Positions 5,586 through 30,086 of a stretch of 35,760 nucleotides of DNA are shown piece after piece. Origin of the DNA: Sulfurimonadaceae bacterium (GTDB lineage Bacteria > Campylobacterota > Campylobacteria > Campylobacterales > Sulfurimonadaceae). The first letter of the stretch is position 1. The number at the start of each line of letters is the position of its first letter. A program made the position numbers and the translations under genes. The stretch is from assembly GCA_041571435.1 (NCBI GenBank), contig JBFFUI010000021.1:1-35760 (forward strand), read 5' to 3'. Under the pieces are notes generated by a model that searched no databases, was not told the origin of the DNA, and saw only the letters and a program-made list of their open reading frames with translations.

Positions 5586-6629
5586 TTAGAGTGCTTTTTC
5601 CGCAGCAATAAGGGCAACAACACCGTCATACATCTCCTGGACACATTCGACTTCCGTTACCCCAAGTCGGCGGCGGTTCGAGATGTCGTAAACACCCCCT
5701 TCGCTTGCTGAATGTTCACCGTGAATCCCTCTGATCTGCAGATGGTGCTGGTCTGCTATCTTCTCAAAGTCCGTTATCTTTTCTGAGAGTTTCGGCAGCT
5801 TGATGTGGACACTGGCGCGCATGGCCGTTCCGAGGTTTGTCGGACAGCTTGTCAGGTAACCGAGATGATCGGAATAGGCGAAGCTGATCTTTTTGCCGAT
5901 CGTTTCGATCGCCGTTGCGAGACGGGTGAATACGGCTTTGATATCGCCACCCATCTGCATCGAGATGATGCGCAGCTGATCCTCTTCATTGACCCATACC
6001 AGAAAGCTCTTTTCGTCATTATGATAGATGCCTCTGCCTTCCGGCCAGTCACGGTTAAGTCCTGCCGATTCGAGAAAACGGTCACCGGCTTTGAAAAGAA
6101 AGTGGTCCGCTACCAGTTGTGCACGCTGTGCTTCACTCATCCCTTCCAGCGGATAGTAGGTGCCAGAAAGCTTGCCTTTGAGTGCATTGAGTGCAGCAAA
6201 GACCTGACGTTCGACATCATTGCGCTGTTCTCTTGAGATCGCCGGTCCGAGAGGCATGTCGGCAATATTGCGCCCGACACGGATCCGCGTTGAGATGATG
6301 TAATGACTGTCCGGGTCAGGGTTTGAAGCATTCAGATCATCAGGATTGAAGTTACTTTCATGCTGCTGCTCTTTTGAAAAACCGTGATACTCTTGAATAA
6401 TCGGATCAAAGATCGGGGCGAATATAGCATAGGACTCTTCGTCGCCGGCATAGACACCGATGCTGCTGTCGGGGTTCTCTACTCCAGATCGGATCGCCTT
6501 CTGCAGGGTAAAACCGTTACTGGTTACTTTCCCTTTGAGCGCGTTAAAAACGTCCTTGCTCAAATATTTGCACAGTAGTGATCTGCAATCTTCGGGAAAA
6601 GTTGGAAACGGATCGGTGTTCTTCATCAT
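5586..6629 (-). CDS. Arginine kinase (eukaryote-type ATP:guanido phosphotransferase)
   Basis: N-terminal phosphagen-binding domain (SLLCKYL...SGVENPDSSIGVYAGDEESY), STRIRVGRN, WVNEEDQLRIISMQ, CPTNLGT, GEHS...YDISNRRRLG. Confidence 0.93.
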   Translation of the reverse strand: MMKNTDPFPTFPEDCRSLLCKYLSKDVFNALKGKVTSNGFTLQKAIRSGVENPDSSIGVYAGDEESYAIFAPIFDPIIQEYHGFSKEQQHESNFNPDDLNASNPDPDSHYIISTRIRVGRNIADMPLGPAISREQRNDVERQVFAALNALKGKLSGTYYPLEGMSEAQRAQLVADHFLFKAGDRFLESAGLNRDWPEGRGIYHNDEKSFLVWVNEEDQLRIISMQMGGDIKAVFTRLATAIETIGKKISFAYSDHLGYLTSCPTNLGTAMRASVHIKLPKLSEKITDFEKIADQHHLQIRGIHGEHSASEGGVYDISNRRRLGVTEVECVQEMYDGVVALIAAEKAL

Positions 6630-7552: not shown

Positions 7553-8766
7553 TATGAAACCTCATTTCCGTTGATATAGATGTGTTTCATATTATAGCCA
7601 TGCAGAAGTAAATGCAGCGGCAACTGTTCGTTCGGTGTTGCTTTAAGGTCGATAACAAGCAGGTCGGCCTCTCTGCCGACAGCGATCTCTCCCGTGTTAA
7701 GACCCAGCGCTTTTGCGCTGTTTTGTGTCGCATTGGTCAGCAACTCTTTGGCTAATGGGATGAGGTCGGCATCCGCGTGCATAAAGAGGGCGATTTTCAT
7801 CTCTTCTATCAGATCCAGCGCATAGTTTGAACTGAGCCCGTCTGTTCCCATGATCCAGGGCACACTGTTTTTGTCCAGCTGTTCGAGGTCGATCGCTCCG
7901 TTGCCGAGCAGACGATTGGAGATAGGGCAGTGAATGACGGTATGTCCGTCTTTGGAGAGCTGTTTGAGCTCTTTGTCGTTGGCTTGAACGACATGGGTCA
8001 TCAGTGTCGGTTTTGCTTTGAAAAGATTTAAAAATTCTTCGGAAGTGTTGACCGCGTACTCCTGTTTGAGGAACTCTTTGAAAAAGGGCTGGAAATCTCC
8101 GCTGTTACTCTCCAGCCACTCTCTTTCTGCCGGACTCTCCATGTAGTGGGCAGAAGTGATAAGGTCATGTTGTGAAGCATAGGCCAGGGCACGTTTAATA
8201 AGAGCGGGATGAACAGAGTACGGTGAGTGAATGGCAATAGCTGGATAAAAGCCTTCTCTCTCAACTGTCCGGGATGCTTCTAAACGTGACAAAAAGTCAT
8301 CATAGAGCGTATCGGCCATTATGGCCTGAGAGCCGATCACCTCATTAAAAAAAACCACCTTCTGTTTCGCATTGGCGGCAGCCTCCAGATCCATCGCATA
8401 GGAGCTTACGGCACCGAATGTGGTGATACCGTTTTGAAGCATGTCATTACAGGCTTTGGCCATACACTGCTCGTCACACCCCTGGATCAGGTCTTCACGG
8501 TGTTCAATGACCGAGTAGAGCCACTCCAGAAATGAGCCATACTTCAGGGTGCTTTTGTTGCCTGAAAATTCAAGGTGGACATGGGGATTGATAAGCCCCG
8601 GCATCACCATAGAGTGCAGCGGGGTCTCGATAAACTCAGCGTCAGGGAACTGCTCTAACAGCTCGTGCAGCTGACCGATCGCACGGATGTGTGTATCAAA
8701 AGCGATGCTCATACCACTGAGCTGTTCGGTCGGAGAGAGAATGGTTTCGGGGGATATTATTTTCAT
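7552..8766 (-). CDS. mqnF: Metal-dependent amidohydrolase, probable aminodeoxyfutalosine deaminase (futalosine menaquinone pathway)
   Basis: PGLINPHVHLEFS, HSPYSVHP, HCPISNRLL, GTDGLSSN; same position between aroQ and sppA as in Campylobacter; start moved to ATG 8766 (8769 possible); TAATG coupling to sppA. Confidence 0.8.
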   Translation of the reverse strand: MKIISPETILSPTEQLSGMSIAFDTHIRAIGQLHELLEQFPDAEFIETPLHSMVMPGLINPHVHLEFSGNKSTLKYGSFLEWLYSVIEHREDLIQGCDEQCMAKACNDMLQNGITTFGAVSSYAMDLEAAANAKQKVVFFNEVIGSQAIMADTLYDDFLSRLEASRTVEREGFYPAIAIHSPYSVHPALIKRALAYASQHDLITSAHYMESPAEREWLESNSGDFQPFFKEFLKQEYAVNTSEEFLNLFKAKPTLMTHVVQANDKELKQLSKDGHTVIHCPISNRLLGNGAIDLEQLDKNSVPWIMGTDGLSSNYALDLIEEMKIALFMHADADLIPLAKELLTNATQNSAKALGLNTGEIAVGREADLLVIDLKATPNEQLPLHLLLHGYNMKHIYINGNEVS

Positions 8767-8912
8767 CATTACTCGTTTACAAAATTTAGTAAAACAATTA
8801 TATCGCTTTCGATGTTGCAGGTCATTAAAGAATGTAGAGGATTTCAAGGGATTAAAATAATTCTTTACCTATAATGCACGAAGAAAATTATTATACAAAA
8901 CAAAGGTTATCA

Positions 8913-9395
8913 ATGAAAGTAGTTGTTATACAAGGTCCAAATCTTAATATGTTAGGTGTTCGTGAACAGTCGATCTACGGACCGATGAAGTTAGAGCAGA
9001 TTCATGCCCAGATGAAAGACTTTGCAGACAAAAACAACATGGAAATCGAGTTTTTCCAGTCAAACCTTGAGGGTGAGATCGTTGACAAGATACAGGAGTG
9101 CTACGGAGACGCGCAGGGTATCATCATCAATGCAGCGGCCTATACACATACATCGATCGCGATCCGCGATGCGATCTCTGCTGTTTCTATCCCGACTATC
9201 GAGGTTCACATCTCCAACATTCACCGCCGTGAAGAGTTCAGAAAAGAGAACATGATCGCACCGGTATGTGCTTCATCGATTGTCGGCTTCGGCCCATTCG
9301 GTTATCACCTTGCAATGCTTGGTATGAGCCAGATCATGCAGGAAGTCCAGGCAATGCAGGCACAACAAGCAGCGGCACAACAGCAACAAGCGTAA
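8913..9395 (+). CDS. aroQ: Type II 3-dehydroquinate dehydratase
   Basis: [51 protein letters not shown]; start moved to ATG 8913 after AAAGG. Confidence 0.96.
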
Positions 9396-9400
9396 CCGCC

Positions 9401-9892
9401 GTGGGGATTGTGCGAAAACTCTCGGATAAGCTTACGCTTTACATAGAGCCAGGTTTCCCTGCATCGTACAAAACCACTACACACTTTCGCCACCGTGCCA
9501 TTATCGGTATCGGCGGCAATGTCGGCGATGTCAAACGCCGTTTTTACCATCTTCTGGTCTTTCTCAAGCGTCAAAAAAACATGACCGTTTTGCACACCGG
9601 ACCGATTTTACAAAATCCTCCTTTCGGGTACACTGAACAGGATGATTTTTTTAACTCGGTCATTGAAGTGTCGACATCTATGGGGGCGCGTGAGCTGTTG
9701 GCATTCCTGCTAAGGGTCGAAAAACGTTTCGGCCGCAAACGCAGCTTTGCCAATGCACCCCGTACCCTCGATCTTGATCTGATATTTTTTGACAGGGTCA
9801 AAATGAATACCCCAAAATTGACCCTCCCGCATCCGCACTGGTCAGAGCGAGAGAGTGTTGTCATTCCTCTTCAGATGCTGGGAACAGTATGA
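9401..9892 (+). CDS. folK: 2-amino-4-hydroxy-6-hydroxymethyldihydropteridine diphosphokinase
   Basis: IGIGGNVGD, QDDFFNSV, EKRFGRKR...PRTLDLDLI, LPHPHW; probable GTG start at 9401. Confidence 0.92.
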   Translation: MGIVRKLSDKLTLYIEPGFPASYKTTTHFRHRAIIGIGGNVGDVKRRFYHLLVFLKRQKNMTVLHTGPILQNPPFGYTEQDDFFNSVIEVSTSMGARELLAFLLRVEKRFGRKRSFANAPRTLDLDLIFFDRVKMNTPKLTLPHPHWSERESVVIPLQMLGTV

Positions 9893-10725
9893 TGCAGCCA
9901 AACAACCGCGCAAAAAAAACCCGTTTCATTGCCATCACCAGCGGTAAAGGCGGTGTCGGTAAAAGTACGATCAGCTCGAATCTGGCATACATACTGGCAA
10001 GAGCCGGGGTCAACGTCGGGATCTTTGATGCCGACATCGGTCTGGCAAATCTTGATGTCATGTTCAATGTCTCCGTTAAGAAAAACATCTTGCATCTGCT
10101 CAAAGGTGAAGCCAATCTTGAAGAGATCCTGATCAGGGTGATGGATAACCTGATCCTGATCCCGGGTGAGAGCGGAGAAGAGATACTGCAATACTCCGAT
10201 TCAGAGATTTTTGAACAGTTTATCAAAGAGGCTGAGGCCTTAAATGACCTTGATGTCCTCATCATCGACACGGGTGCCGGTATCAACAAATACACTCAGC
10301 TCTTCTTACAGGCCGCAGATGATGTGGTCGTTGTGACGGTGCCTGACCCAGCTGCGATCACGGATGCCTATGCGACAGTGAAAGTGGTCGCACGTGAACG
10401 AAGTGACATGTACATGCTCATCAACCAGGTGGCAAATGAGCAGGAAGCACGTTCGATCTTTGACCGCATCCATAAAGTCGCTGTGGGCAATATCCGCAAC
10501 GACCTGGACCTTAGGTGTTTAGGCAAGATCAACGCTGATCCAAAGGTCTCCGGTTCAGTTAAACGGCGGACTCTTTTTTCAAAGGCATTTCCGTCATCCG
10601 TGCCAAGCCGGGATATTCGTGCTGTTGCCAAAGAACTGGTCAAAAATTTTGAGCGCCGTGTCTATGTCAAACCAAAGGAGAGTGGTCTGGCGGGACTGTT
10701 TAAGCGCTTGCGGGAGCAGTTCTGA
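9889..10725 (+). CDS. flhG: MinD-like ATPase FlhG (N-terminally shortened)
   Basis: Deviant Walker A SGKGGVGKST, DADIGLANLDV, IPGESG, IDTGAG, PDPAAITDAYA; C-terminal amphipathic helix GLAGLFKRLREQF; follows folK. Confidence 0.9.
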   Translation: MMQPNNRAKKTRFIAITSGKGGVGKSTISSNLAYILARAGVNVGIFDADIGLANLDVMFNVSVKKNILHLLKGEANLEEILIRVMDNLILIPGESGEEILQYSDSEIFEQFIKEAEALNDLDVLIIDTGAGINKYTQLFLQAADDVVVVTVPDPAAITDAYATVKVVARERSDMYMLINQVANEQEARSIFDRIHKVAVGNIRNDLDLRCLGKINADPKVSGSVKRRTLFSKAFPSSVPSRDIRAVAKELVKNFERRVYVKPKESGLAGLFKRLREQF

Positions 10726-11720
10726 TGCAGACGAAGGAGTTGCTTTCCCAGCATGAAATCGATGCACTTCTGGATGTATTTAATGCATCCGATGAAGAGC
10801 GGGGCACGGATATCCTGTTTGAAGTCGGCATGTCGAAAGTGGCAAATGGCCTGGAACTTTTTTTTGAAAGCCTGGCACTACCGTTTGAGAGCCTCAAAGT
10901 GCGCAAAAGTACCGTTCGAGAGGAGAGCAGTTACACCTATTTCCCGCAATATCCCTACCTTGATAAAATCGCTATTGACAATGTACTTGCGTTACGTATC
11001 TTAGCCATGGAATACGGTGCAAAAGCAGACAATAGCGCACTTGACAGAGAACTCACCCTATTGGAAAAAGAGCTCCTGGAGGATCAGTGCGGAGAGATCG
11101 CCTATCTTGTCGAAAAAGAGCTTGGGAACTATCTGGAAAAAGATGCACACTCAGAGCCGACGGCAGACCACAGTGTACTTGTCGTGTGTGGGGATGAAGA
11201 GCGTGCCATACGTTTCTCTTTTGCTCAAGGACCTGCTGAGCCTGAGAAAGTGGTATTGTCTGAGAGACAAGCGTCTGTCGAGAGCAATGAAGAAGCAAAG
11301 ACCAAGGTAGTTGCGGTCATTGGTACAGTTGCAGCCGACAGGCTTGAAGTGGGCAGTACGTATGCACTTCAGCCCTTCAGCAGAAACAGAACGGTATTGC
11401 TACTGGATGAGAAGCTGCCCTTTATGGCAACGCGTCATTCTCAAAAAGGCGCGACACTTGCGTATATACTGCAAGAGGCAGTTCCAGACAAAAATATGCT
11501 GTGCGGGCATTACGTCACGATAGCAGACACAACGATCGATGATGCATCTCTCTTGGAACTGGACAGGGGCTCGCAGCTGGAGCTGGAGCTGTATGGCAAC
11601 GTGCAGATCCATAAAGATGCTAAAATGGTTGCAAAGGCACAGCTCACCCGCTCAGAGGGCCAGCCCGTTGTAAAAGTAGTGGGCCTAGACACCAAGGAGA
11701 TAACAAATGTCGAACAGTAA
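10725..11720 (+). CDS. Diverged FliM-like protein fused to a FliN/FliY-type SPOA domain
   Basis: N-terminal LLSQHEIDALL; IAIDNVLALRILAMEYGA...DRELTLLEKELL resembles the FliM middle domain; two C-terminal SPOA-like segments; sits where fliM-fliY normally lie. Confidence 0.7.
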   Translation: MQTKELLSQHEIDALLDVFNASDEERGTDILFEVGMSKVANGLELFFESLALPFESLKVRKSTVREESSYTYFPQYPYLDKIAIDNVLALRILAMEYGAKADNSALDRELTLLEKELLEDQCGEIAYLVEKELGNYLEKDAHSEPTADHSVLVVCGDEERAIRFSFAQGPAEPEKVVLSERQASVESNEEAKTKVVAVIGTVAADRLEVGSTYALQPFSRNRTVLLLDEKLPFMATRHSQKGATLAYILQEAVPDKNMLCGHYVTIADTTIDDASLLELDRGSQLELELYGNVQIHKDAKMVAKAQLTRSEGQPVVKVVGLDTKEITNVEQ

Positions 11721-12489
11721 ACACGTCCCAAAAGAGGTCGTAAAACGTTATGTGCGTGACATCAAGTCCGCCGATGCCTGGAGTATGTTTAAGATCATGG
11801 CCGATTTTGTCAAGGGGTTTGACGAGCTGGGTGATCTGGGTCCGGCGGTCACGGTCTTCGGCAGTGCAAGGTTGAAAGAAGAGAGCAAGTACTATCGGAT
11901 GGCGCATCTGCTCGGTGAAAAACTGGCGGCCAAAAAGTTCAATGTCCTGACCGGCGGGGGACCGGGTATTATGGAGGCGGCGAACCGCGGTGCCTTCGAC
12001 AGAGGCGGGGTCGAGTCCATCGGTCTGAACATCGATCTTCCTTTCGAGCAGGAACCTAACCCCTACACCACAAAAGAGGAAAACTTCGACTACTTCTTTT
12101 CGCGCAAAGTGATGTTGGTCAAATATTCTCTGGCCTATGTCATCTTTCCCGGCGGTTTCGGTACGCTGGACGAACTTTTTGAAGCGTTGACCCTGGTACA
12201 GACACGCAAAGTCGAAGGGGTACGGATATTTCTTGTCGGAGAGGAGTTCTATAATCCGCTGATCGATTTTATCGAAGAGTGTCTGATCTCGCATGATATG
12301 ATCGATGCCGAGGACTTTGAACTGATCACCATCAGTGATGATCTTGACTATATTGTCCGTGAGATTGAAAAGTCGCTTGAAGTGCAGATCTCAGGACTTG
12401 CCAAAGAGGGACTTTCCAACACGAAATATTTCAAGAACCTCTCCAAATTCTTTGATGAACGCCAGATCAGGTCGGGCAGAGATTCGTAG
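11707..12489 (+). CDS. LOG family nucleotide phosphoribohydrolase (TIGR00730-type)
   Basis: VTVFGSAR, TGGGPGIMEAANRGA, RKVMLVKYS, PGGFGTLDELFE. Confidence 0.92.
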   Translation: MSNSKHVPKEVVKRYVRDIKSADAWSMFKIMADFVKGFDELGDLGPAVTVFGSARLKEESKYYRMAHLLGEKLAAKKFNVLTGGGPGIMEAANRGAFDRGGVESIGLNIDLPFEQEPNPYTTKEENFDYFFSRKVMLVKYSLAYVIFPGGFGTLDELFEALTLVQTRKVEGVRIFLVGEEFYNPLIDFIEECLISHDMIDAEDFELITISDDLDYIVREIEKSLEVQISGLAKEGLSNTKYFKNLSKFFDERQIRSGRDS

Positions 12490-12617
12490 GCTTTTTTAAA
12501 GTAAAGGCTGATACCTTAACTAAATTGTAAGGATAGTCTCGCGATTAATCACTTTTTGTTATTATTCCGGCATTAGAAACCAAGAAAGACGTCTGCACGG
12601 CGTCGAGAGTAGACAAT

Positions 12618-13637
12618 ATGGCAAAAAAAGTTTTGATCGGAATGAGCGGCGGGGTCGATTCGACCGTCTCAACGATGTTGTTACAAGAAGAGGGGTATGA
12701 GGTAGAAGGGCTCTATATGCGCCTGCACTCCAAGCCGGGCTACCATGAGATCCATCAGGCACGTGCACAAAAAGCGGCCGACTTTGCGGGTATCAAACTG
12801 CATGTTCTGGATCTGGAAGAGACCTTCAAAGAGAAGGTTGTAAACCCGTTTATCGAAACCTACAAAGAGGGTAAAACACCGAACCCCTGTGCCTTGTGCA
12901 ACCGTAACCTGAAGTTCGGCGAGATGATGAAATTTGCGGACAAGATCGGTGCGGACCTCTTGGCAACCGGTCACTACATCCAGCATGACGGTACCTACCT
13001 GCTTCAGGCTGAAGATGACACCAAAGACCAGTCGTACTTTCTCTTTTACATTGACAAAGCGATTGTCCCCCGTCTTATCTTTCCGCTTGGAACACGCCAT
13101 AAAAAAGATATCAAAGCGATGGCGGCCAAGATCAAAGGACTGGAGTCATTTGCATCTCAGGCGGAATCGAGCGAGATCTGTTTTGTCGAGACGACCTACA
13201 CTGACGTCCTGAAAGATTACGTCCAGGTCGATCAGCCGGGCGAGGTCCTTGATGCAGAGGGGAATGTGGTCGGAGAGCATAAAGGGTACATGCACTACAC
13301 CATCGGCAAACGCAAAGGCTTCACGGTCAAAGGGGCGCATGATCCGCACTATGTGACCAAGATCATTCCCGAAAAAAACCAGATCGTTGTGGGGCTGAAA
13401 GAGGAGCTTGAATGCTACGACGTGAAACTCAAAGATATCAACATGTTTGACGATCGCACAAGTTTTGATACGACCGTAAAGCTGCGCTACAGAACCCACG
13501 CCGTACCGTGCCATGTCGAGATCAGCGGCAATACGGCGACCATAAAACTGCAAGAGCCTGTACTGGGTGTCGCTTCAGGCCAGGCTGCCGTCTTTTATGA
13601 TGACAACAAACTGATCGGCGGTGGGTGGATTGAATAG
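12618..13637 (+). CDS. mnmA: tRNA-specific 2-thiouridylase MnmA
   Basis: MSGGVDST, TPNPCALCN, ATGHY, KDQSYFL, ESSEICF, YTIGKRKG, GQAAVFY. Confidence 0.97.
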   Translation: MAKKVLIGMSGGVDSTVSTMLLQEEGYEVEGLYMRLHSKPGYHEIHQARAQKAADFAGIKLHVLDLEETFKEKVVNPFIETYKEGKTPNPCALCNRNLKFGEMMKFADKIGADLLATGHYIQHDGTYLLQAEDDTKDQSYFLFYIDKAIVPRLIFPLGTRHKKDIKAMAAKIKGLESFASQAESSEICFVETTYTDVLKDYVQVDQPGEVLDAEGNVVGEHKGYMHYTIGKRKGFTVKGAHDPHYVTKIIPEKNQIVVGLKEELECYDVKLKDINMFDDRTSFDTTVKLRYRTHAVPCHVEISGNTATIKLQEPVLGVASGQAAVFYDDNKLIGGGWIE

Positions 13638-14011
13638 ACCGTAAATATAACGTTTTTACGATAGACAGGACATTACGTCGAACAGATGCCGAATACTCTG
13701 GCATTATTCAAGAAAACGCATTTTTATCCTGAGTTAACTCTTCAGAGGACTCATCATCTGCATCAATTTTTTAAAAAAAACATGCTGTGGGATATGATCC
13801 CCCTTTCGCCAGACAATACACCATCGGATTCTTTTCTCTAACCCCTTGTCTACATCCGGAAATGCAATCCATGCATCATTATCGAAACGCAAAGTACAAT
13901 CGGTTAAATATTACAGAAAGTAATATTAAGCACCACGTTTATATAAAATAATTTATTGATTTGAGTGACATTTCGCACTATCCTATATACAGATTCGTAA
14001 ATTAGGAGTAT

Positions 14012-17000
14012 GTGATGCGTCTGTATATATATGTATTGACCGCTATGCTTATCCTGTCCGGATGTAGCAGTAGTGATGGTAGCAGCAGTAACGGTGGTGC
14101 GACGGCCACATCCGCAGTGAGCGGTGTGGGTGTGGACGGTTATATCGCCGGGAGTTATGTGTATGCCGATCTGGACGGCAGTGGTGATGAAAACGGTGGC
14201 GACATCAACACCACGACGAATGCAGAGGGCAATTTTACGTTCGGTTCAACGAAAGTTGCTCACGACACCTACCTATATCTGACAGGTGGAATTGATATTG
14301 CTACGAATATACCGTTTGCAGGGACACTGAGCGCCAGTTTCCAAGGTAATACAACGGTAATTTCTCCACTGTCGACGATGGTAGCTTCCTTGATGCAAAA
14401 TGAAGGTCTTGGTTATGCTGCTGCAGTAGCAAGCGTCGCTGCAATGACGGGGCTTACTGAAGAACAGGTTGTTGCTGACCCTTTTGCAGAGCCGGTTGAC
14501 ACGGATGTCTTCGTCGCTTCACAGCGTATTGTCTCCGCAGCAACAATGCTGGGCGGTGATTTTACTGCAGCAGTCGATGCCCTGGCCGCTTCGGACATGA
14601 ATATTACGGCAGCCGCAGCAGCTATGATCCCTCCTGTTGACCCTACAGATGCGCTTGCGGTCGATGCTTTTATACTCGACCTTCAAGCGCAGATGCCGGC
14701 AGTTGCCACTGTGGATGATTTGGTAGCATATCAGCTGCTTATCGCAAATGCTCTGAATAATCCTGGGGGTATTCCTGATGTTGCTGATGCTGTTGCTGTT
14801 GCCAATGCTTTGGCCTGTGTGACATTTGATGCTATCAAGGGCAGTAACCTGGTTGAGAACAACATTACGACAGACCTTGTTTTAGGCGGCTGTGAAAATC
14901 CTGATGATAACGTGACTTTTGCATGGAACAGTGACAATACGGTGATTTTAGGACATGATGGTGTTGTCATTCGACCCGATTACACTGGCGGTGACGTCAA
15001 TCTGACAGTAACGGTCACATCGGATAATAACATTTCGGTTTCGGCCGATAAAGTGTTCGCTTTGACGATTCCGCGTCTGGATAACCATGTACCTGTAGCT
15101 AACCCGGACTCCAATTCGACATTGGAAGATACGCCGATCTCGTTTAATGTTCTTGCCAATGATACGGATGCCGATAATGATGCATTGACAGTGACCGCAG
15201 TAGGCAGCGGTGTCGGTTTCAGTGCAGATGGAACGATCACCTATACACCGGCATTAAACTTCAATGGTGATTTTGTTTTTGACTATACGGTGAAAGACAG
15301 CTGGGGTGATGAAGCCAACGGTACGGTGACGATCACTGTCACGCCGGTCAACGACGCACCGGTGCTTGATGCGATCGCCGATGTCAATCTGAGTGAGGAC
15401 TTCATCACGCACTCTTTCGTGGTGAATGCGACCGATGTCGACAGTGGTTCGTTGACATACAATGTTGAAAGTATCGTACCGTCGACAATCCTTAATGCAT
15501 CATTTACGGGCAATCAGCTTGATTTGACATCGATCGCTGATCAAAATGGCGATGCAAACATTACTGTGTCTGTCACTGATGGTGATAAAAACGACACAGC
15601 GAGTTTTATCGTCCATGTCGCAGCTGTCAATGACGCGCCGCAGTTCACTTTTGTGCCGTCGTCACCGTTGATCCTGGATGAGACATCAAGTGATCGTATT
15701 ATCCGTATCGACCTTGATATCATCGATATTGATACGGATCTTTCTTTGATATCGATCCATGATGCCGTCGTCAATTCCGGTTCTGCAGGGGTATATTCAA
15801 CGAATGATGTGGGGCACTACTTTGAAATCATAGTCCCGGCTGACTCAAATGGTGAGACCAACATCACCATTACATTGGATGATGGTCAAAACCTAGTGTC
15901 AAATGATTACATCGTGCAGGTCACACCATCGCAAAGTGCAGCTACGATTACGACTGAAAGCATTTCCGTAGATATCCAAGGCGGCAGTGGACAGCATTTT
16001 GCACTTGATGTTCAACCGAGCGATGAGACCTATACCCTCTCGATAGACAATGGGGGAGATATAAACATTGCCATAGTCAGTATCTCGGGGTACGATCTGG
16101 TGGTAGATCCGCAAGGTACCGGTACTTCGACCATCACAGTCATGGCTGTCAACGACGCGAACGCCTCGCTGGTCTCCTATACAGACATCAATGTTACCGT
16201 CTACGACTCGTTGAATCAGGCGCCTACCGCCTCTGCGAGCGTAATCACCGTCCAAGTGGATAGTGCCATTGATGCGAATCTGAGTATAAGCGATCCGGAC
16301 GGTGATGCAATGACGATAGTGATGGTCACGCCGCCGGCACACGGCAGTATCATCAGCCATGATGGTTATGGTCATATTAACTATCTTGCCACTGGCAGCT
16401 ATATCGGCGATGACAGTTTTACGTACAAAGCTTATGACGACCAGAACTATTCGAATGCAGCGACGGTGACGGTGCATGTCACGGCCGCGCCATATTCAGA
16501 CAGCGGCAGTCTGACAGAAAAACCGATCACATTGGAGGAGTTCAATAGCTATCCTGGAACAACAAACTATGGCGTACCGATGTACAGTGTCTGGGAAGAC
16601 GGCTGGGCGTCAGAATCGAAGTTGACTGTCGAAAGTATCACCATCAACGAATCACCGCAGGAACTGTATATTTTCCATTATGATACGAATGCGACGGATG
16701 TCTTGCCATATACGCTTGATCCCGATGGTGTGAGCATCCTCCTCGATTTTGACCAGAATGGTACGGATGACTTGAAGGGCAAATATGTCGGTCCAGCGTA
16801 CAGTGCGGAACTGCAACTGGAATTGAACCTGACCTTGCCGGATAGTGCCGTGGGATATAAACTGGCGACGTTAAACCTTCATGAAGAGTATGAGTTATGG
16901 AGTGGTACTGAACCGTATACCACATTGGGTGATTTTATGGCCGACAAGACCTATATTCCTGCCACGCCAGGTTTCAACGATTTCAATATCGACGGCTATA

Positions 17001-18643
17001 GTTTCAAATTCGACGAAAACAGCAGCCTGGGTGATGGCAGCGGTACGATTATCCGTACAACACATTATTGGGATGGAACTGATCATGAAATCGTAACCGT
17101 AGCCGATGCCGGTACCTGGGAGTTCACGCAAACGCCTGGCGGTGACGATGTACTTATCGTCACACCGACGGTATACGGTATAACAACGGTCCGAATTTTC
17201 ATGGTCAGTACCAATGATAATTATGTCCATCAAGGTGAATACCGTCCGGCCAACAGTGCTTACTTGGAGTATAGATTCGATGAAAATACGATGCATCATC
17301 TCGCAAACAGCATTATGAATGTAACTGTAAATATACCGGAACAGAACCTGAGCAATCCGCAAGGCGAATTCATCAGTTTCAACGCTTTGGCCACGGATAT
17401 ATTGGCCTCTTATATCAATGTCAATATGTACGGTATCCGGGCGCAGGATGATTATGGAAACTATATCATCGAAACGGACCAAATCCGTTTCGACAGCAAC
17501 GGCTCTGTCATTATCACGGGAACGGGTGGTACGGAAGTTTATCCATACGTTGTTAACAATGACATCGCAACCCTCTACAATGGCGGCCAGCCTTTTGTCG
17601 ATGCGAAGATGGTCGAAACAATAACGGATGCAGCAACGATCAGTGCCATGATCGGTATACCAGAGGGTAACTTGGGTACGCCGGTGGCTTACCGTTTGGC
17701 GCATTTAGATCTGAATGAGTCGGTGGATATCTGGGACAGTAATATAACCGCAATAGACTTTATAACGACGTATTCTGATTTCGCAACCTTCCAGACGGCA
17801 TTTATGAATAAACAAGTGCCACTTGACTATACGATACCTGGTACCCAGTACATAGGATATGCAACAGGTACAGCCGGTGTCGGCGGTACCCTTGCGGAAT
17901 ATGATTTGTCCCAAAATGTTATTACAGCGTATGCCGGCACATGGGAAGTCAAAACGGTTGAGGGCAAGCAGATTATCGTCTATGACGATAGTATTCTGGT
18001 AAATCATTCAGATAGATATCCTGCTGTTGCTAAGTCAGATGTTACGGGGGTTATGAGTGAAGCGCATTATACCCCGGCTGATTCGGGTAGTGTAGAGCTC
18101 CGTTATGATCTGGCGACAAGCGAAGCGATCGCAACGTACCTGCAAGATCAGAATACCAGTGGCAATCCAATCAATTTCGGGGTCGAGACGTGGATCGACC
18201 GTGATGTCGAAGCCGTGCCGTTTATCAATGATCCGCTTTATAATGCGCATATTGAAGTCGATCCGCTGACCTGTGACACCAATGTAACACGGAGCTATAT
18301 CTGGCTTGACGGTGACAGCAGCAGCGGTAATTTTGTGATCAGCGATGATCCGACAAACTATACATACACCAGTAATGACGGAAAAGTGGTTACGATTTCC
18401 ATTTCCGGCGGTGATCCTGTCATGTACGGCAAGCTCAGCAGAGAAGTGAATGCGACCGAGTTGTCAGCGGTAACCGGGCTGTTCCTGCCGCCGTGGGCAT
18501 TAGGTTACGAAGTATCGCATGCGGATATCGCCGGTACCCAGGGTGCCAAAGAGCTCAGACTGGATGCGACGACAGTCGAATACCTTGAAAGTTATCTTTA
18601 CAACAATCCTCTAGCCAAAGGTGTTTGTATACCTGCACCGTAA
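14012..18643 (+). CDS. Giant acidic surface lipoprotein/adhesin with Ig- and cadherin-like repeats
   Basis: AGGAG RBS (GTG 14012 or ATG 14015); lipobox LSGC followed by Ser/Gly linker; repeated NDAP/N(H/Q)xP-delimited Big_9/cadherin-like units with DxDxD Ca-binding-like motifs. Confidence 0.85.
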   Translation: MMRLYIYVLTAMLILSGCSSSDGSSSNGGATATSAVSGVGVDGYIAGSYVYADLDGSGDENGGDINTTTNAEGNFTFGSTKVAHDTYLYLTGGIDIATNIPFAGTLSASFQGNTTVISPLSTMVASLMQNEGLGYAAAVASVAAMTGLTEEQVVADPFAEPVDTDVFVASQRIVSAATMLGGDFTAAVDALAASDMNITAAAAAMIPPVDPTDALAVDAFILDLQAQMPAVATVDDLVAYQLLIANALNNPGGIPDVADAVAVANALACVTFDAIKGSNLVENNITTDLVLGGCENPDDNVTFAWNSDNTVILGHDGVVIRPDYTGGDVNLTVTVTSDNNISVSADKVFALTIPRLDNHVPVANPDSNSTLEDTPISFNVLANDTDADNDALTVTAVGSGVGFSADGTITYTPALNFNGDFVFDYTVKDSWGDEANGTVTITVTPVNDAPVLDAIADVNLSEDFITHSFVVNATDVDSGSLTYNVESIVPSTILNASFTGNQLDLTSIADQNGDANITVSVTDGDKNDTASFIVHVAAVNDAPQFTFVPSSPLILDETSSDRIIRIDLDIIDIDTDLSLISIHDAVVNSGSAGVYSTNDVGHYFEIIVPADSNGETNITITLDDGQNLVSNDYIVQVTPSQSAATITTESISVDIQGGSGQHFALDVQPSDETYTLSIDNGGDINIAIVSISGYDLVVDPQGTGTSTITVMAVNDANASLVSYTDINVTVYDSLNQAPTASASVITVQVDSAIDANLSISDPDGDAMTIVMVTPPAHGSIISHDGYGHINYLATGSYIGDDSFTYKAYDDQNYSNAATVTVHVTAAPYSDSGSLTEKPITLEEFNSYPGTTNYGVPMYSVWEDGWASESKLTVESITINESPQELYIFHYDTNATDVLPYTLDPDGVSILLDFDQNGTDDLKGKYVGPAYSAELQLELNLTLPDSAVGYKLATLNLHEEYELWSGTEPYTTLGDFMADKTYIPATPGFNDFNIDGYSFKFDENSSLGDGSGTIIRTTHYWDGTDHEIVTVADAGTWEFTQTPGGDDVLIVTPTVYGITTVRIFMVSTNDNYVHQGEYRPANSAYLEYRFDENTMHHLANSIMNVTVNIPEQNLSNPQGEFISFNALATDILASYINVNMYGIRAQDDYGNYIIETDQIRFDSNGSVIITGTGGTEVYPYVVNNDIATLYNGGQPFVDAKMVETITDAATISAMIGIPEGNLGTPVAYRLAHLDLNESVDIWDSNITAIDFITTYSDFATFQTAFMNKQVPLDYTIPGTQYIGYATGTAGVGGTLAEYDLSQNVITAYAGTWEVKTVEGKQIIVYDDSILVNHSDRYPAVAKSDVTGVMSEAHYTPADSGSVELRYDLATSEAIATYLQDQNTSGNPINFGVETWIDRDVEAVPFINDPLYNAHIEVDPLTCDTNVTRSYIWLDGDSSSGNFVISDDPTNYTYTSNDGKVVTISISGGDPVMYGKLSREVNATELSAVTGLFLPPWALGYEVSHADIAGTQGAKELRLDATTVEYLESYLYNNPLAKGVCIPAP
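16496..18640 (+). repeat. Three diverged protein-level repeats in the adhesin C-terminal half
   Basis: Recurring motifs: LPDSAVGYKLA / TPVAYRLA / LPPWALGYEVS; LEYRFDENT / VELRYDLAT / KELRLDATT; AGTWE in units 1 and 2. Confidence 0.65.
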
Positions 18644-29468: not shown

Positions 29469-30086
29469 ATGCAAAAAATAATATTTGTTCTTCTTATCTT
29501 AATTTCTGGTGCATTAGCAGCACCGATTCACAAAGCGGCAGTCGATGGTAATATAAAGGCGATGCAGTTCGAGCTTACGGACGGTATTGATATCAATCTT
29601 GTCAACAAGCATGGTCAGACACCGCTGGTGCTTGCCGTCTACAATGAACATCCTGATATGGTTGAACTGCTTCTTAGAAAAGGGGCCGACACCAATGTAG
29701 AGATGCAAAATGGACAGACTGCCATTTTTATTGCCGCTTATCTGGGAAAGAACAAGATGATCATCAGTCTACTGGAAAAGGGTGCGCAACTCAACATTCA
29801 TGATAAGAAAGGGGACACGCCTTTGCATAAAGCAGCAGAAGGCGGCCATGCAAGTGCTGTAAGAATACTGCTTGAACACGGTGCCAAAATAGACGCGCTG
29901 AACAATGAAAAATCGTCTCCCCTTCATATTGCTGCGAAACTGGGCAATGAAGATGCCATCTGGGCACTCGTCAAAGCCGGTGCAAGCAACAAGTTTGTGA
30001 ATGATGAAGGGATGACCGCCTCTGAAGTCGCAGATGAAGAAGATTACGGCAGGATCGTAAAGATCATCCTGAAATACGCTAAATAA
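29469..30086 (+). CDS. Exported ankyrin-repeat protein
   Basis: Signal peptide MQKIIFVLLILISGALA; about 5-6 ankyrin repeats (GQTPLVLAV, GQTAIFIAA, GDTPLHKAA, SSPLHIAA). Confidence 0.9.
   Translation: MQKIIFVLLILISGALAAPIHKAAVDGNIKAMQFELTDGIDINLVNKHGQTPLVLAVYNEHPDMVELLLRKGADTNVEMQNGQTAIFIAAYLGKNKMIISLLEKGAQLNIHDKKGDTPLHKAAEGGHASAVRILLEHGAKIDALNNEKSSPLHIAAKLGNEDAIWALVKAGASNKFVNDEGMTASEVADEEDYGRIVKIILKYAK

Follow-up and report, generated by a model that had tools for sequence, protein, structure and literature searches.

Why would a bacterium without a flagellum keep parts of the flagellar switch? This question is raised by positions 9889-11720 of a 35,760-nucleotide stretch of a Sulfurimonadaceae bacterium (hereafter the window; assembly GCA_041571435.1, contig JBFFUI010000021.1, positions 1 to 35,760 of the forward strand), in which flhG, a gene for a MinD/ParA-family ATPase, runs directly into a gene for a protein of 331 amino acids (aa) that we read as a fusion of FliM and FliY. 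On the evidence given below, we are confident that these two genes, together with a third on another contig that encodes a FliG with a transmembrane (TM) anchor (TM-FliG), are remnants of the flagellum kept under selection in a lineage that has lost it. As an explanation of the whole, we propose that they make up a three-gene relic system with an FlhG-dependent role in placing the division site, a reading to which we give a probability of roughly 0.5.

A collapsed flagellar locus

The genes at the locus and beside it are as follows.

8874-9395: aroQ (Pfam match)
9266..9892, + strand: folK (HPPK; PF01288, 92 bits, residues 79-204)
9889..10725, + strand: flhG relic, MinD/ParA-family ATPase, 278 aa
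10725..11720, + strand: 331-aa relic switch protein, read as a FliM-FliY fusion
11707..12489, + strand: LOG/TIGR00730-family gene (Lysine_decarbox; Pfam and NCBIfam matches)
12618-13637: mnmA (Pfam match)

In a flagellated genome from another genus of the same family (G016), the corresponding run reads aroQ-folK-flhF-flhG-hyp(111 aa)-fliA-fliM(364 aa)-fliY(290 aa)-mnmA. This order was checked, and the window locus can be identified as the ancestral locus in collapsed form, that is, minus flhF, the hypothetical gene of 111 aa (hyp111) and fliA, and with a single 331-aa gene where fliM and fliY would stand. The original prediction, made from the letters of the window, had named this canonical order and the flanking genes; aroQ, folK, LOG and mnmA are confirmed by Pfam and the order holds in G016, but LOG is not part of it, as mnmA comes directly next, with no LOG gene between, in G016 and in two further genomes discussed below (G003 and G036). 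The joins between the genes are as that prediction described them: the end of folK and the start of flhG share ATGA (9889-9892), TGATG at 10723-10727 is common to flhG and the 331-aa open reading frame (ORF), and the LOG start at 11707 gives a 14-nucleotide overlap with the 331-aa ORF, whose TAA stands at 11718-11720. Both flhG and the 331-aa ORF are uninterrupted, and there are neither pseudogene scars between these genes nor room for any; given such tight overlaps and the lack of orthologues by tblastn (see below), flhF, fliA and a separate fliY are indeed gone without trace. Pfam and NCBIfam together name every gene of the aroQ-to-mnmA run except the 331-aa one. The folK ORF as listed overlaps aroQ, and its true start probably lies downstream of 9395; scanning 8500-14100 for promoters and terminators yielded no decisive result.

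The genome (G000) is a draft of 66 contigs with a completeness of 100% and a contamination of 0.81%. Family searches of it returned no match for FliMN_C, FliM, FHIPEP or Flagellin_N, and none for CheW or MCPsignal (cheY itself was not searched). With tblastn, G016 FlhF, FliA, hyp111, FliM and FliY found no orthologue in the whole genome: flhF gave only matches of ~30% on contigs C31 and C2, which are presumably the other SRP (signal recognition particle)-type GTPases, and fliA gave one match of 26%. Nor did G016 FliF, FliG or FliH find any counterpart by the same means. MinC and MinE were also unmatched, and the best match to the MinD model was FlhG itself, at 105.7 bits against a cut-off of 212.9, so that no Min system was found; across the family, MinE was present in 1 of 10 sampled genomes.

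That a flagellum is present after all, its genes unassembled or moved elsewhere, we consider very improbable. The draft state of the assembly would allow it, but the completeness and contamination values do not favour it, ten flagellar or chemotaxis families or proteins are unmatched in the genome, and FHIPEP (FlhA), present in 91 of 121 genomes of the family, is absent from all 15 congeners, among them a single-contig genome and others that are 99-100% complete. Both ancestral loci (that of the window and that of fliF-fliG-fliH, described below) have moreover collapsed in place, and their overlapping genes leave no room for missing ones. The lack of a flagellum thus extends to the whole genus.

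Remodelling of the three relics

The flhG product matches the ParA/MinD fold (PF10609, 92 bits) and, at 106 bits against minD_bact (TIGR01968; cut-off 212.9), falls below the level of a MinD equivalog. It shares 64% identity with G016 FlhG and 57-65% with FlhG of flagellated relatives, and occupies the orthologous position beside the same folK neighbour as in G016; across the order, 125 of 151 genomes have a match to it at E <= 1e-50. In an alignment of FlhG sequences (A5), the deviant Walker A motif SGKGGVGKS is invariant, and a C-terminal amphipathic helix, GLAGLFKRLREQF, is conserved and may serve as a membrane-targeting helix; a helix of this kind is reported to exist in Campylobacter jejuni FlhG (PMC6946799). 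What differs is the N-terminus: an extension of ~16 residues in FlhG of G016 and G027 is missing in the non-flagellate G000, G003 and G024. The extension bears a QAxxLxxL pattern (QAEKLEELV in G016 and QARGLEALV in G027), and the FlhF-activating motif is given as DQAxxLR (bioRxiv 10.1101/2022.03.19.484964); judged from the alignment, the part that was lost corresponds to the position of the FlhF-activating DQAxxLR-type motif in relatives. An FlhG without its FlhF-activating extension fits the loss of FlhF.

The 331-aa protein can be divided into four parts.

10734..10781, + strand: N-terminal KELLSQHEIDALLDVF, residues 4-19, with the FliM-type LSQxEIDALL motif (LSQHEIDALL here)
10803..11222, + strand: FliM-middle-like alpha/beta domain, residues 27-166
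11298..11480, + strand: first SPOA-like beta domain (SPOA1), residues 192-252
11508..11687, + strand: second SPOA-like domain (SPOA2), residues 262-321

Alone, the protein had no Pfam or NCBIfam match at default thresholds, the Pfam FliM middle domain (PF02154) included, and its identity as a fusion rests on family profiles, an AlphaFold2 model and Foldseek, with no plain domain match. An alignment of 21 members of the fusion family (A1; mean column identity 63%) shows K-E-L-L-S-Q-x-E-I-D-A-L-L at the N-terminus as its best-conserved block, with L6, L7, E11, L15 and L16 invariant and T3, K4, S8, Q9, I12 and F19 conserved in at least 90% of sequences. This N-terminus matches that of canonical FliM (consensus MADILSQEEIDALLEVV; MADILSQEEIDALL), and FliY has no such N-terminus. 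The EIDAL motif singled out in the original prediction is thus the best-conserved stretch of a fast-evolving protein, in a genome without a CheW or MCP (methyl-accepting chemotaxis protein) match. Within the middle domain, the RxLTxLE core is kept, invariant or nearly so. Towards the C-terminus, Pfam FliMN_C (PF01052) was found in 19 of the 21 members (E <= 1; best E 2.2e-5), the window copy scoring 13.3 bits against a cut-off of 23.8, and the top three PDB sequences for the fusion profile were FliN/FliY, as weak matches (E 0.15-0.34).

Structure prediction bears out the label of a FliM/FliN fusion that the protein had been given. The AlphaFold2 model (predicted local distance difference test (pLDDT) score 74.5) had as its best Foldseek match an engineered FliM(SPOA)::FliN fusion, 4yxb (E 1.3e-6), over residues ~190-322 and 163 aligned columns with a TM-score of 0.59 on the target; full-length FliM chains from C-ring cryo-electron microscopy (8wiw_7, E 4.5e-6; 8umd_C) and the FliM middle domains 4gc8, 4fhr_A and 2hp7 (E 1e-3 to 1e-2) were also matched. 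Residues 81-129 aligned with residues 118-166 of the FliM core in hhalign (E 1.6e-5, probability 79%). The model therefore fits a protein composed of a FliM N-terminus, a FliM-like middle domain and two tandem SPOA domains. As to origin, profile comparison gave the middle domain a score of 28.4 against FliM-middle and 9.3 against FliY-N, SPOA1 18.0 against FliM-C and 10.8 against FliY-C, and SPOA2 24.6 against FliY-C and 15.5 against FliM-C; the two SPOA domains did not match each other significantly (hhalign, E 0.08). Most likely, fliM was joined in place to the 3' part of its neighbour fliY to give this gene. The protein resembles 4YXB/4YXC in carrying two SPOA domains in one chain, whereas those structures are engineered and the chain here is natural, with an added FliM N-terminus and middle domain.

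The third relic lies outside the window, and FliG_C, which it carries, was the sole flagellar family matched in the first family searches of this genome.

G000:C3:72980-73918 (= L066:5981-6919), − strand: TM-FliG, 312 aa, outside the window (FliG_C profile match)

The pair in the window had been taken for a two-gene module, a view that has to be given up, as TM-FliG on its other contig co-occurs with the fusion. TM-FliG matches FliG_M (37.5 bits, cut-off 25) and FliG_C (57.8 bits, cut-off 23.3), and it has no match to FliG_N, the domain that binds the FliF C-terminus; residues 1-76 form a TM hairpin (helices ~18-41 and 47-76) and residues 76-114 a disordered linker. Against G016 FliG, hhalign gave a probability of 98.4% (E 4.3e-15), and FliG structures account for all 13 Foldseek matches at E <= 1e-3. 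In place of EHPQ(T/R), the motif is QHPQI, with QHPQ invariant or nearly so. The gene order is HAD-pheA-hisC-[312-aa gene]-dxs here and HAD-pheA-hisC-fliF-fliG-fliH-dxs in G016, so that TM-FliG occupies the ancestral fliF-fliG-fliH site. It shares with canonical FliG the domains FliG_M and FliG_C, the fold and the fliG locus, and differs from it in having two TM helices and a disordered linker in place of FliG_N, and in its QHPQI motif. From the position, we would guess that the membrane anchor came from FliF. Hairpin and linker had no significant hhalign match to G016 FliF or FliG_N, and the best one, to the second TM helix of FliF, had an E of 0.06, so that this origin stays a guess.

We also modelled residues 140-312 of TM-FliG with residues 25-175 of the fusion, both as alignments. 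The complex scored 0.71 (0.71, 0.69 and 0.72 in separate runs) and the best of three controls 0.00. In calibration, 58 of 80 solved complexes attained this mark, as did 2 of 110 mismatched pairs, although these counts are rough here, since the alignments were our own. At least 91% of contacts are common to the runs, and the pLDDT of the partner is at least 80. The predicted interface joins FliG 158-166 (QQHPQ, the counterpart of EHPQ) and 194-216 to fusion residues 90-100 and 106-120, so that the FliG and FliM domains of the relics would meet at the canonical FliG_M-FliM_M interface. Because FliG-FliM complexes have already been solved (4FHR, 4FQ0 and 4QRM), we take this pass to indicate that the likeness to such complexes is kept, which is less than to say that this particular pair binds.

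Distribution and selection within and beyond the genus

Fusion homologues were found in 13 of 15 congeners and in none of 25 genomes from 25 other genera. A profile of the fusion family again recovered 13 of 15, with two weak matches outside the genus (E ~0.007), both to the N-terminal motif in ORFs the size of canonical FliM; searched against 1.84 billion representative proteins, it had 21 matches at E <= 1e-3 and 16 at <= 1e-30, of which 15 are of 306-331 aa and one is a 184-aa fragment. In 12 of 12 loci the fusion comes immediately after flhG, and its start/stop coupling with flhG is preserved, so that the pair recurs in related non-flagellate genomes. Of 15 congeners, 12 have full-length TM-FliG (in flagellated genera, the only matches are to canonical FliG), and fusion and TM-FliG occur together in 13 of the 16 genomes of the genus, this one counted, although such counts come from kin genomes and are not independent. 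Retention holds for most of the genus and not for all of it. G011 (93% complete) shows no more than part of the fusion gene, at the end of a contig; G003 keeps flhG alone, with hisC-[91-aa FliG_C remnant]-dxs at the other site and the fusion gone; G010 has none of flhG, fusion and TM-FliG; and the fusion copy of G006 (L069:2402-3335) is frameshifted near residue 198, which could be a pseudogene or an assembly indel in a 1.18-Mb contig. Because of the losses in G003 and G010 and the frameshift in G006, fusion and TM-FliG are dispensable in at least some members.

Are the fusion and TM-fliG, then, functionless and decaying leftovers of a recent flagellum loss, with only flhG maintained? The losses and the frameshift would suit this explanation, as would the contrast in divergence (identity within the genus is 32-86% for the fusion and 33-78% for TM-FliG, and 81-95% for FlhG), the tiny size of the fusion family, with its 21 matches, and a degenerate GGxG motif: at this FliG-binding site, which falls within fusion residues 90-100 of the predicted interface, the sequence reads YGAK or FGAK, with only G98 invariant. 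The ratio of non-synonymous to synonymous substitution rates (dN/dS) speaks against decay. Calculated by the Nei-Gojobori method (NG86) for pairs with dS < 2.5, and for 11 full-length copies in the case of the fusion, it is 0.008-0.098 for flhG, 0.10-0.43 for the fusion (0.18 at dS 0.41 for G000-G002 and 0.10 at dS 0.17 for G012-G015) and 0.16-0.44 for TM-fliG. The two fast genes together thus span 0.10-0.44 over dS of 0.17 to >2, where neutral decay would give ~1 and stops; all 11 of those full-length fusion copies are open, the G006 copy being a further one. In addition, EIDAL, the RxLTxLE core and QHPQ are invariant or nearly so, the start/stop coupling is intact, and the relics are remodelled (a fusion in one case, a membrane hairpin in the other) and not merely truncated. 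All three genes are under purifying selection, with dN/dS well below the value near 1 that would have spoken for pseudogenes, and we regard decay as improbable.

Relics of related kinds occur in other lineages of the order, Campylobacterales. In genus g10 of the same family, FHIPEP is present in 1 of 10 genomes (and in 0 of 2 of genus g30), and flhG is followed, with a start-stop overlap, by a 182-aa ORF (L020:5197-6572, G024) that is conserved in 8 of 10 genomes and adjoins flhG in 7 of 8 loci. It begins G-V-L-N-Q-A-E-V-D-A-L-M, with the EIDAL-like LNQAEVDALM, and has no SPOA domain. As a family, it matches residues 7-124 of A1 (E 1.7e-5) and the FliM N-terminus (E 9.4e-4), the comparison being informative only with the g10 alignment, as a single g10 sequence against A1 reached a weak probability of 13%; on these profile matches, the ORF appears to be related to the N-terminus of FliM and to the beginning of its middle domain. 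A search for TM-FliG or FliG found none in the 10 genomes of g10 or the 2 of g30. In G036, which belongs to another family and lacks FHIPEP, the order is folK-flhF-like(347 aa)-flhG(286 aa)-FliM-like(297 aa)-mnmA (L078:2695-5500), where the FliM-like protein matches PF02154 at 38 bits and has the N-terminus IVSQDELNALL, and a FliG of 396 aa with N, M and C domains and an N-terminal extension stands between hisC and dxs (L079:1489-2679). Perhaps G036 shows this reduction at an earlier stage. Family f6 presents a contrast: its two tested genomes lack FHIPEP, FlhG is found in 0 of 10 and MinE in 6 of 10. Three lineages, two of which (g1 and g10) need not have lost the flagellum independently, are seen at different stages of reduction.

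G040 and G155, whose FliM-like ORFs (24-25%) made them candidates for further relics, were rejected, as both have FHIPEP. Separately, a 355-aa protein from outside the family (P0046) has a weak FliM match and two FliMN_C stretches, and may be another FliM with tandem SPOA domains.

Possible function and further genes of the window

The best guide to what the relics might do is C. jejuni, a member of the same order whose flhG, fliM-fliY and fliF-fliG loci are orthologous to those here by synteny. There, polar Z-ring suppression is reported to need FlhG together with MS-ring and C-ring proteins, with FlhF also needed and FliH, FliI and the export apparatus dispensable for division control (Balaban & Hendrixson 2011, PMC3228812; Henderson et al. 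2020, PMC6946799), and the C ring is reported to localise FlhG (PMC6946799). The proteins required (FlhG, FliF, FliG, FliM and FliY/FliN) correspond to the survivors in our genome, and the dispensable ones are among the genes deleted. The C. jejuni proteins, however, act within a working flagellum and with FlhF, whereas here there is neither; the switch proteins of this genome have been fused and reduced in size, and FliG lacks FliG_N and is anchored directly to the membrane, which is not so in C. jejuni, and the role here is a putative one.

We suggest that all flagellar genes but three were deleted, and that the survivors stayed at their ancestral positions while each was remodelled. The membrane-anchored FliG relic would use the canonical EHPQR/GGxG-type interface to bind the FliM-like middle domain, the two tandem SPOA domains would stand in for the FliM-FliN pair, and the exposed EIDAL peptide would recruit or regulate FlhG, the one close MinD-like ATPase that was found, in a genome with no MinC, no MinE and no true MinD. 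The three proteins would in this way form a flagellum-independent scaffold for FlhG activity, and its job would be polar Z-ring suppression, that is, placement of the division site. Assembly in the cell, binding of FlhG to EIDAL and the function in division are what we infer in this scheme. That the three proteins act together seems probable; that their job is division-site control, by analogy with C. jejuni genetics, we put at no better than an even chance. More tentatively still, the relics might form, with no export apparatus, rod or filament, a free-standing, membrane-anchored C-ring-like scaffold, a new switch-derived organelle that serves only to localise and control FlhG in choosing the division site and that Campylobacterales reuse at each flagellum loss.

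A number of observations weigh against this proposal. FlhF, which is needed for division control in C. jejuni, is absent here, and a stable interaction between FlhG and the C ring is reported not to have been detected in C. jejuni (PMC6946799). The fusion-origin scores are weak (E 3e-4 to 0.24) and come from a comparison with FliM and FliY, and the pass of the complex model may reflect memory of 4FHR, 4FQ0 and 4QRM. The degenerate GGxG site, the lack of a significant match between the anchor and FliF, the fast evolution of fusion and TM-FliG, and their loss or frameshift in three congeners belong on the same side. Finally, G036 keeps a relic set although MinE is present, which means that the absence of Min does not by itself account for retention.

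The case of G036 also bears on another explanation, namely that the same three-protein relic is functional in a different task, such as a polar structure, the positioning of chromosome or cargo, or FlhG/FleN-type transcriptional control. Purifying selection and co-occurrence establish that there is some function and not which one, G036 has its comparable relic set despite MinE, and it would be odd for an essential division function that G003 and G010 live without fusion and TM-FliG. The LOG gene points the same way: it comes after the 331-aa gene in this genus alone, namely in 10 of 12 loci (the remaining two stop at a contig end), is missing at G003, where the fusion is missing too, and is not at this position in the flagellated G016, a pattern that hints at a further link. 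Against such a task stand the fact that division-site control is the only experimentally documented non-motility role of this protein set in this order, the absence of MinC and MinE from this genome, and the lack of any candidate cargo or regulator for it among our results. We consider a different task unlikely, if a good deal less so than decay.

How would a relic system for division-site placement compare with other systems built around such an ATPase? Relative to the FlhF/FlhG (FleN, YlxH) switch for flagellar number and placement, FlhG here is an orthologue by position and sequence, with Walker A motif and helix kept, but there is no FlhF, there are no flagella to count and the FlhF-activating extension is gone. 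With MinCDE, it would share the proposed job, FlhG being the closest MinD relative in the genome and having a putative MinD-like membrane-targeting helix, whereas MinC and MinE are unmatched, FlhG falls below the MinD cut-off and its partners derive from the flagellar switch.

If the proposal is true, the division role of the C ring would be old and strong enough to outlive motility. How the C. jejuni ring acts on FlhG is there entangled with flagellar assembly, gene regulation and motility; the genus described here would be a minimal version supplied by nature: it has three small proteins, the flagellar and chemotaxis markers searched (which did not include cheY) are unmatched, and FlhG-EIDAL binding, FliG-FliM binding and ring-like assembly could be tested separately in it. 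More generally, parts of a machine may outlive the machine through a secondary function, and fusion (FliM with FliY, an anchor with FliG) would be one route of simplification. Full-text literature searches returned no description of such relics. Of two relevant works, PMC9321776, on flagellar evolution in Campylobacterota, gives Sulfurovum/Nitratifractor and a Campylobacter subclade as the non-flagellate members and in its accessible part mentions no relics, although its supplementary gene tables may list some, and the accessible part of a 2025 review of FlhF/FlhG (PMC12826062) has nothing on non-flagellate carriers.

Three other genes of the window deserve mention. Between mnmA and prs, at 14012-18643, lies a gene for a predicted lipoprotein of 1543 aa with Big_9 and cadherin-like repeats; in G003, the order is mnmA-prs-lepA, without this gene. 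At 29469-30086, downstream of grpE-dnaK, a 205-aa ankyrin-repeat protein is encoded (Ank_2, 118 bits). Phosphagen kinases are uncommon in bacteria, and the gene at 5586-6629 (− strand) encodes one of the arginine-kinase type, with ATP-gua_PtransN (265 bits) and ATP-gua_Ptrans (103 bits) domains.

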